Source: Nitrosopumilus sp.
GTDB taxonomy: Archaea > Thermoproteota > Nitrososphaeria > Nitrososphaerales > Nitrosopumilaceae
Length of the DNA stretch: 64,000 bases
Direction of reading: 5' to 3'
Assembly: GCA_965197525.1 (NCBI GenBank)
Contig: OZ240211.1
Location: 1,952,001-2,016,000 of the forward strand
Made by a program: the position numbers and the translations under genes. A model generated the notes under the pieces. The model was given only the letters and a program-made list of their open reading frames with translations, searched no databases and was not told where the DNA came from. How positions within the stretch are numbered: the stretch's first letter is position 1; each line of letters opens with the position of its first letter. Positions 8,238 through 8,432 of this stretch are shown piece by piece.

Positions 8238-8323
8238 CGCTGCGAGTGGGATTCGAACCCACGGGATGTGGACCATCAATTATTTGATAAATAATCTCCC
8301 TTACCAAACTAGGAAACCGCAGC
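8238..8323 (-). tRNA. Transposon-borne class II tRNA-like gene, anticodon AUC, discriminator G73
   Basis: GCTGCGG/TCGCAGC acceptor, TCCT/GGGA D stem with AG..GG loop, ATTAT/ATAAT anticodon stem with loop TTATCAA, 16-nt variable arm (GATG/CATC), GTGGG-TTCGAAT-CCCAC T arm. Confidence 0.85.
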
Positions 8324-8349
8324 ACATTGCCAATCTTTTCATATTAAGT

Positions 8350-8432
8350 AAAAATGTTCTGGGCTGGTCCACACCATTCTATTTAACCCAGAACGTTTAG
8401 TTTGACTACAAGTCAAACACGTCAAGACGTAC
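8350..8432 (-). ncRNA. Predicted three-hairpin small RNA with a loop complementary to the tRNA-like variable arm (copy 1)
   Basis: TATA-like TTTAATAT starts 27 nt upstream. Hairpins CGT-CTTG-ACG, GTTTGACT/AGTCAAAC and GTTCTGGGTT/AGCCCAGAAC, then ATTTTT. Structure covaries with 50128-50223. Confidence 0.7.

Follow-up and report, generated by a model that had tools for sequence, protein, structure and literature searches.

The 64,000-nucleotide stretch analyzed here (the window; positions 1,952,001 to 2,016,000 of contig OZ240211.1, assembly GCA_965197525.1) is part of a complete 2.21-Mb Nitrosopumilus-type genome rich in GGTTCTGT-ended elements, and contains two copies of an insertion sequence (IS) of the IS6 family, each of which carries, besides its transposase gene, a module of two neighboring RNA genes: one for a small RNA that ends in a hairpin and a T-run, the other for a class II tRNA with a non-serine anticodon. 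The loop of that terminal hairpin holds two short sequences, here termed box 1 and box 2, which are antisense to the tRNA of the same module, the first to its anticodon arm and the second to its variable arm. The comparison of 14 such modules established the gene anatomy, the tRNA fold, and a partner-specific, covarying complementarity between the two RNAs in trans, which arrangement we read, with due reserve, as a possible RNA-only pair of poison and antidote.

The two-RNA module in the IS6 copies of the window

In copy 1 both RNA genes lie on the minus strand. Three hairpins and then UUUUU make up the predicted fold of 8434-8350 (-27.8 kcal/mol, z -3.7); the last of the hairpins consists of the stem GUUCUGGG/CCCAGAAC and a 23-nt loop. 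Within this loop, box 1 matches the 5' strand of the anticodon stem of the tRNA through A34, and box 2 matches the variable arm, GGTGTGGACCA (8375-8365) pairing with TGGTCCACATC (8275-8265) over 11 bp that include one G-U. The tRNA-like gene, which has a TATA-like box of its own overlapping the T-run of the small RNA, was called by ARAGORN at 8237-8323 with the anticodon AUC and by the Rfam model RF00005 at 8238-8323 with 45.9 bits. In copy 2, on the plus strand, the equivalent stretch folds in the same way; box 1 covers the anticodon stem, C32, U33, U34, and A35; CCCTAGGAGGACA (50195-50207) matches 50293-50305 as a perfect reverse complement over 13 nt; and the tRNA-like gene was again found by ARAGORN and by RF00005 (49.3 bits). 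An earlier note on this DNA had described for both copies this order of TATA-like box, T-run hairpin RNA, and Ser-type tRNA, and its coordinates and its 11- and 13-nt matches proved to be exact. The parts of the two modules are the following:

8451-8459, minus strand: TATA-like box TTTAATATA, putative promoter; it starts 27 nt before 8432, where the small RNA is predicted to begin
8350-8432, minus strand: small RNA 1, three hairpins and a T5 run
8379-8385, minus strand: box 1 of small RNA 1 (UAAAUAG), antisense to tRNA 8294-8288
8365-8375, minus strand: box 2 of small RNA 1 (GGUGUGGACCA), antisense to variable arm 8275-8265
8238-8323, minus strand: class II tRNA-like gene 1, anticodon AUC at 8288-8286, G73, no encoded CCA
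50128-50223, plus strand: small RNA 2, preceded by TTTATATA at 50101; its last hairpin has a loop of 24 nt, and a T5 run follows
50182-50188, plus strand: box 1 of small RNA 2 (UAAGACA), antisense to tRNA 50278-50284
50195-50207, plus strand: box 2 of small RNA 2 (CCCUAGGAGGACA), perfectly antisense to variable arm 50293-50305
50247-50334, plus strand: class II tRNA-like gene 2, anticodon UAA at 50283-50285, G73, Leu-like D loop

Partner-specific pairing in 14 modules

Further modules were sought in other Nitrosopumilaceae through transposase-anchored loci and a covariance model built on the IS-borne tRNAs, which search brought the family to 14 modules in nine genomes, five of them in the source genome. 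Complementarity between loop and variable arm in other family members had been set beforehand as one test of the earlier proposal, and was present in all 14. In every module the small RNA has a terminal hairpin, whose loop measures 13-48 nt, and box 2 forms the 3' part of that loop, abutting the stem; the pairing run, with G-U allowed, is 8-17 nt long and spans about tRNA positions 42-59. Cognate partners gave a mean run of 11.5 nt and unrelated ones a mean of 4.8 (sd 1.35); each of the 14 small RNAs had its own tRNA as best partner, and none of 20,000 partner permutations reached the observed mean. The tRNA-Ser genes of the host and the partner-less IS-borne tRNAs described below gave nothing beyond scattered box 2 matches of 6-9 nt.

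In most modules box 1, which forms the 5' part of the loop, matches the anticodon arm in antisense over 6-11 nt, its usual target being the 5' strand of the stem together with C32, U33, and the anticodon. Here the mean cognate run was 7.3 nt versus 4.9 nt, and again none of 20,000 permutations attained it. The anticodon is wholly covered by box 1 in four modules (L236, L027, L059, and L303) and partly in four more. Since loop-to-arm pairing counts as a pseudoknot in RNAcofold, the strength of the pairing was expressed by duplex energies: those of box 2 with the arm range from -12 to -33 kcal/mol, versus 0 to -6.7 for the arm's own hairpin.

The pairing is specific to the copy, as the earlier note had maintained: each small RNA of the window matches its own tRNA alone, cross-pairing between copies 1 and 2 amounting to at most 8 nt over the whole tRNA with G-U allowed. 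The 13-mer of copy 2 has no other site in the 2.21-Mb genome even when one mismatch is allowed, and neither the copy 1 11-mer nor the 12-nt box 2 of an orphan relative of copy 2 has any other exact match there; box 2 sequences of 7-10 nt occur in the genome at about chance frequency. The closest comparison within the family is that of copy 2 with this relative, an orphan module at genome position 828334 that also has the anticodon UAA. Between the two, 18 of 170 alignment columns differ, and ten of these 18 make up five double changes in the helix of box 2 and the variable arm, which compensated differences fall on every second helix position (columns 33, 35, 37, 39, and 41; 50195-50207/50293-50305 versus 828283-828294/828380-828391). 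Such spacing abolishes cross-pairing most efficiently, and what is left between these two modules is 6 nt at most; in the orphan the alternate changes also ruin the variable arm's own hairpin. Five double substitutions so evenly spaced fit selection for orthogonality. One more compensatory A-U swap distinguishes the module with anticodon UCU from that of L259.

A reverse-complement copy of the tRNA would not present the boxes in the order observed, anti-anticodon before anti-arm, so that an inverted duplication fails as an explanation of the complementarity. Furthermore, the corresponding DNA repeats are inverted in modules with tandem genes and direct in those with divergent genes, the RNA complementarity being kept in both. 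The box order, this mixed orientation of the repeats, and the five double changes therefore indicate selection on RNA pairing rather than on a repeat at the DNA level; and, because the two genes are divergent in six modules, the pairing there must act in trans.

Identity of the module tRNAs

The 13 IS-borne tRNAs that were aligned share a canonical cloverleaf with 7/5 acceptor and T stems plus a variable-arm hairpin, and 21 of the 26 base pairs show compensatory change. The scores of the module tRNAs, here called B-type, with RF00005 (gathering threshold 29) are 46-61 bits over all the modules, the twelve outside the window giving 47.7-60.7 bits, versus 50-60 for the tRNA-Ser of the host. The variable regions are 13-19 nt long and form a hairpin in 12 of the 14 modules. 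The discriminator is G73 in 13 of the 14, and ten of the 13 in the alignment have G30-C40. The anticodon loops are 7 nt long; U33 occurs in 13 modules and a purine at position 37 in all 14. The triplets are AUC, UAA (five modules), UCU, CUU, UUC, UAU (two), GAU, GAA, and ACG; none of the 14 is a serine anticodon (NGA or GCU), nor is any a stop anticodon. The earlier designation of a serine-type tRNA with a mistaken anticodon is thus borne out by the long variable arm, by G73 and, in most members, by G30-C40.

The host's own tRNAs separate the two class II identities by the discriminator, tRNA-Ser having G73 and tRNA-Leu A73, and its SerRS, encoded in the genome region 1624521-1624853 (locus L301), carries the N-terminal arm domain Seryl_tRNA_N, which in characterized enzymes binds the long variable arm. 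The host also possesses an intron-containing tRNA-Leu(UAA) of its own, located at 1640798-1640919 and bearing A73, which gene is apparently interrupted by an intron in the D arm and by another behind the anticodon loop, and is misassigned by ARAGORN as CAA. According to published identity rules, serine identity is conferred by the variable arm and G73 independently of the anticodon, G73 blocks LeuRS in Haloferax volcanii, and G30-C40 accompanies G73 in archaeal or bacterial-type SerRS systems (PMC9976931). In yeast, anticodon variants of tRNA-Ser, GAA and GAU included, are toxic and often lethal, toxicity and level of misincorporation showing no simple correlation (PMC6125640). From these identity rules and from the toxicity of the yeast variants, it is reasonable to suppose that the module tRNAs, if charged, would insert serine at non-serine codons.

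Distribution and variants of the modules

In the source genome three modules are orphans, without a transposase gene (370064, UAA; 828334, UAA; 1904518, UCU), which nevertheless retain both RNA partners after the loss of the transposase. Elsewhere, the two genes stand in tandem in L067 (UUC), L236 (UAU), and L259 (CUU), and diverge in L027 (UAA), L059 (ACG), L226 (GAU), L263 (UAA), L289 (GAA), and L303 (UAU). The six divergent modules have a short AT-rich spacer with TATA-like boxes between the genes, and a T-run after the small RNA in five; the sixth, L059, which belongs to a GC-richer genome, is the one module of the 14 in which that run is missing. Three of the divergent modules (L027, L263, and L289) have in common the small-RNA stem GGTTAC(T)/(A)GTAACC with unrelated loops and tRNAs, so that a single scaffold appears to have been re-targeted. 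A variant module at 918756-918828 (minus strand; locus L012, 1625-1697), at an IS6 end, has a class I tRNA-like gene with no variable arm, one mismatch in the acceptor, and an anticodon loop of 8 nt (AUUCCGAC); GUCGGAA, in the loop of the hairpin RNA upstream of this gene, is complementary to that anticodon loop. Counting this variant, eight of 15 modules adjoin an IS6 transposase gene or fragment, and the placement relative to that gene may be convergent, same-strand, or orphan.

Other approaches added little. A BLAST search with the copy 2 module in 400 other genomes of the family returned a single decayed relic, L299, BLAST being too insensitive for a module that changes so fast; a pattern scan of metagenomes for the T arm, the 3' end of the acceptor, and GCGCTTC yielded no module, its 120 hits being ordinary tRNA-Ser loci in DNA from soil, gut, and elsewhere. 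Solitary copies of the small RNA were not found in the source genome.

A second group of IS-borne tRNA-likes, here called A-type, is also of class II with G73, and has the anticodons CAG, UAU, GAU, GAA, or GAG. These genes are located at genome positions 615040-615126 (L216, 1541-1627) and in L014, L016, L023, L029, L031, L243, L276, L282, L291, L315, L323-L326, and L328, six of them occurring within 32 kb of one genome (G429), and lie 40-50 nt upstream of transposase starts on the same strand. The transposases are IS6-like; in the source genome the corresponding open reading frame (ORF) resembles, as judged by eye and with no Pfam comparison, an IS1595/ISXO2-type transposase. Upstream of most copies viewed (L014, L016, L023, L029, L216, and L243) there is a divergent ORF of 53-58 aa (MTRWKKDETEF...IPKPI...), AbrB-like by eye yet without any Pfam or PDB match. 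A search for a partner RNA within 400 nt on either side and in the whole loci gave nothing above background. A further group with anticodon GAA (L270, L281, L292, L297, L327, and L329, the last holding a tandem duplicate), of class II, with G73 and covarying acceptor stems, occurs in several Nitrosopumilus genomes with no obvious IS context and no partner RNA. In 28 of 100 sampled genomes of the genus, the strong matches to the tRNA model exceed the usual four, and the surplus copies examined, in four genomes, were all partner-less.

The IS6 elements

The elements have the features of the IS6 family, namely a DDE transposase of the IS240/IS26 type (PF13610, 39 bits; cutoff 27), terminal inverted repeats that start with GG (GGTTCTGT...), and 8-bp target duplications (TTTAATAG in copy 1, and CTATTGTG in a sister element at genome positions 746475-748444). 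Those parts that lie in the window are:

4395-8520: IS6-family element, copy 1, with terminal inverted repeats at 4395-4423 and 8492-8520
7097-8231, plus strand: copy 1 transposase gene, IS6 / DDE_Tnp_IS240 type
50022-50050, plus strand: terminal inverted repeat of IS6 copy 2
50340-51476, minus strand: copy 2 transposase gene, intact, 378 aa (DDE_Tnp_IS240, 39 bits; weak SWIM match)

Copy 1 is flanked by a perfect 8-bp duplication, TTTAATAG, at 4387-4394 and 8521-8528, which places its RNA genes inside the element. Its extent is greater than the earlier note had assumed: a foreign insertion of about 2.3 kb at 4441-6715 interrupts it, and the transposase gene is frameshifted, a 2-nt gap near 7437-7460 splitting it into the ORFs 7097-7456 and 7530-8231, so that copy 1 is dead. 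In copy 2, whose transposase gene is convergent with the RNA genes, the second end of the element was not found, the homology to the intact element ending at 51503. The transposases of the two copies, which the earlier note had put at about 90% identity, are 89% identical by our computation.

The sister element (locus L217, 576-2545) is intact, has an 89%-identical transposase and, in the slot of the RNA pair and behind a similar promoter, contains an ORF for an 81-aa, Lys-rich, coiled-coil-like product (MTDKTIVDVLRAIKK...); the slot, therefore, accepts exchangeable cargo. The tRNAs of the two window copies have indeed diverged as strongly as the earlier note had reported, which divergence is better read as the exchange of cassettes than as the re-coding in place that the note had envisaged.

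Two further observations concern these elements and their surroundings. Inside copy 1, just upstream of its transposase start, at 6966-7049 on the plus strand, there is a canonical-looking box C/D RNA with the terminal stem GTGATTGGC/GCCAATCAC and C, D', C', and D boxes, for whose two 12-nt guides no convincing target was found in the genome, rRNA and tRNA included. Past the end of the copy 2 homology, the stretch from about 51504 to 53300 is likely foreign, with 47% GC (51540-53300) versus 39.6% in the genome; in it a 431-aa ORF (51890-53185, minus strand) looks like a DDE transposase of the Harbinger/IS5 kind, a resemblance noted with no Pfam comparison.

Interpretation and alternatives

We favor the reading of an RNA-only pair of poison and antidote, in which a missense tRNA chargeable with serine would be masked by a dedicated antidote RNA, and consider it plausible, if not quite probable, the reasons being the design of the mask, the selfish carrier, the retention of both partners in the orphans, and the copy-specific codes. 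On this model the IS6 element would carry two independently transcribed RNA genes. The class II tRNA keeps the features read by SerRS (a long variable arm, G73, and mostly G30-C40) in combination with a non-serine anticodon and, if charged, would deliver serine at Asp, Leu, Arg, Lys, Glu, Ile, or Phe codons. In the small RNA, box 1 would pair with one strand of the anticodon stem, often along with the anticodon, and box 2 with the variable arm, in such a way that two intermolecular helices replaced the anticodon stem and the variable arm while the core of acceptor, T, and D stems stayed folded, the A-rich linker of the loop presumably bridging the two helices as they emerge from the core. Such masking would hide both the decoding site and the main handle of the synthetase. 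The earlier note had the small RNA acting on the variable arm; the match to that arm was confirmed, and the presence of a second box, directed at the anticodon arm, is more in keeping with masking, or with an antidote, than with the melting of the variable arm alone. If the tRNA is stable and the small RNA, as we presume, less so, the pair would resemble the type VIII systems and might either penalize the loss of the element or serve as abortive cargo that it carries, each copy having its own orthogonal pairing code. Transcription, serylation, toxicity, neutralization, and the relative stabilities of the two RNAs are inferred. That the whole constitutes a new type of transposon-borne, RNA-only addiction or abortive module, made of a missense tRNA plus a programmable anti-tRNA hairpin clamping both arms and such that every copy must be kept, we put forward tentatively, as a possibility.

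Several observations weigh against the poison-and-antidote reading. The variable arms of the orphan 828334 and of L236 form no hairpin on their own, which structure SerRS should need; the tRNA of L027, with A73 and UAA, has an ordinary leucine identity in spite of a 14-nt pairing; copy 1 has A30-U40 in place of G30-C40; and several anticodon stems contain one mismatch. Box 1, for its part, is weak or missing in two modules (L259 and L067) and in two others (L263 and L289) is directed at the 3' strand of the anticodon stem. In addition, the partner-less Ser-like tRNAs must be either tolerable unguarded or controlled in some other way.

These unguarded relatives, which suggest that such tRNAs are not necessarily lethal, speak for a milder alternative, in which the small RNA would serve as a rheostat on the free missense tRNA, for example in a statistical mistranslation induced by stress, with no killing upon loss. 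All the evidence on pairing and identity applies to it equally, and toxicity and misincorporation are not simply correlated (PMC6125640); but tunable miscoding is of no obvious benefit to an insertion sequence, and the copy-specific codes, with their five double changes, better match selection against cross-neutralization than a shared regulator; we think this alternative rather unlikely. We would give a similarly low probability to the view that the tRNA-like RNA has no part in translation, being a structural or decoy RNA—an element of IS processing or an insulator, or a mimic titrating SerRS or a tRNA-targeting nuclease—with the small RNA as its regulator or as co-factor in a joint complex. 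The fixed place of the partner-less A-type genes just upstream of transposase promoters would agree with such a role, as would the imperfection of some variable arms and anticodon stems, and the AT-rich anticodons could mirror drift in an AT-rich genome. Nevertheless, the architecture of the anticodon loop (7 nt, U33, purine 37) has been kept while the triplet itself changed, the target of box 1 is the anticodon region, which would be relevant only if decoding matters, and the position of the module relative to the transposase gene varies.

The earlier note had offered as an alternative a cis leader controlling RNase P processing; on this view the hairpin RNA would be a 5' portion of the tRNA precursor that steers folding or RNase P processing. 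It is true that hairpin and tRNA share a strand in the window, the hairpin preceding the tRNA by 26-27 nt in copy 1 and by 23 nt in copy 2; yet the genes of tandem modules are kept apart by a T5 run and a second TATA-like box, and in six of the 14 modules the genes are on opposite strands, diverging from a shared spacer with the complementarity kept, which facts exclude the leader as a general explanation and leave it hardly any probability. A guide RNA for tRNA modification, of the box C/D or H/ACA kind and directed at the variable arm or the anticodon loop, is equally improbable. Archaeal guide RNAs do pair with tRNAs over 10-12 nt, and ACA precedes the T-run in three modules; but ACA is absent from the other 11, the C box (RUGAUGA) from all 14, and CUGA from nine, both window copies included, no pseudouridylation pocket exists in the loop, and duplexes of up to 17 bp with two crossed boxes suit neither guide architecture. 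No Rfam family matches the small RNAs.

If the poison-and-antidote reading is true, a tRNA would be a natural toxin, and a small RNA would switch off a folded tRNA through the sequence-specific invasion of two of its arms, neither of which ideas was encountered in the searchable literature; the biology of RNA-only toxin-antitoxin systems would thereby gain a new mechanism. It would also show how insertion sequences in IS-rich Nitrosopumilus genomes make single copies hard to lose. The use of one hairpin stem (GGUUAC...) against three unrelated tRNAs, in L027, L263, and L289, suggests a compact tool for the masking of tRNAs, and, even if there were no toxicity, a covarying bipartite pairing between a small RNA and a tRNA would be a new kind of RNA-RNA recognition.

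Comparison with known systems

Full-text literature searches gave no description of IS-borne tRNAs with anti-tRNA small RNAs in archaea, and the systems compared below are each similar in part. The antisense RNAs IS10 RNA-OUT, RNAI/RNAII, and CopA/CopT have in common with the modules a hairpin loop encoded by a mobile element, whose specificity is shifted by a few substitutions. Those RNAs, however, are encoded in cis to an mRNA or primer, whereas the module RNA is encoded in trans to a tRNA; complementarity of the small RNA to the transposase mRNA was not noticed by eye, no formal search having been run. In the T-box, an RNA loop (the specifier loop of stem I) likewise reads a tRNA partly through its anticodon, as box 1, complementary to the whole anticodon in four modules, would do. 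The T-box, though, is a bacterial leader acting in cis on its mRNA, which also pairs with the NCCA end and senses charging, whereas the module RNA would act in trans on the anticodon and variable arms, opening their stems. A T-box riboswitch as such was rejected: there is no Rfam T-box match, and the small RNA is a separate gene, on the opposite strand in six modules.

The type VIII system CreTA (Haloarcula, Acinetobacter; PMC9458426, PMC10097628) also consists of two RNAs side by side in association with selfish or defense elements, and the original CreT, too, works by way of the tRNA pool; adjacent non-coding RNA genes, one complementary to the other, as in type VIII, are present in all 14 modules. 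CreA, nevertheless, is CRISPR-like and represses creT transcription via Cascade, and CreT is not a tRNA, while the putative antidote of the modules would pair directly with the mature tRNA fold; no sequence similar to a CRISPR repeat was noticed in the small RNAs, a formal search not having been made. With the anticodon variants of tRNA-Ser in yeast, whose serylation is independent of the anticodon and many of which are toxic (PMC6125640, PMC6827378), and with the tRNA-Ser(CAG) of Candida, the module tRNAs share a serine body and a non-serine anticodon. These variants are controlled by tRNA decay or expression level, without a dedicated antisense RNA, and are not the cargo of transposons.

The closest published relatives are the allo-tRNAs of soil bacteria, which have a serine (or leucine) identity with non-cognate anticodons, and some of which insert serine in E. 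coli (Mukai et al., Nucleic Acids Res 2017, PMC5389517). The combination of serine identity elements and non-cognate anticodons is that of the module tRNAs, and the allo-tRNA genes lie near toxin-antitoxin genes and transposon-related ORFs, which location led to the hypothesis of a link with mobile elements or toxin-antitoxin systems (PMC5389517). The differences are that the allo-tRNAs are bacterial with an 8/4 or 9/3 geometry of the acceptor and T stems, whereas the archaeal module tRNAs have 7/5 in all 13 aligned; that no antisense small-RNA partner is described for them in that article or in the review PMC7609411; and that the module tRNA is carried within an IS6 element, which has terminal inverted repeats and a target duplication. 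Should the poison-and-antidote reading hold, it would explain why missense Ser-type tRNAs, the bacterial allo-tRNAs included, travel with mobile elements.

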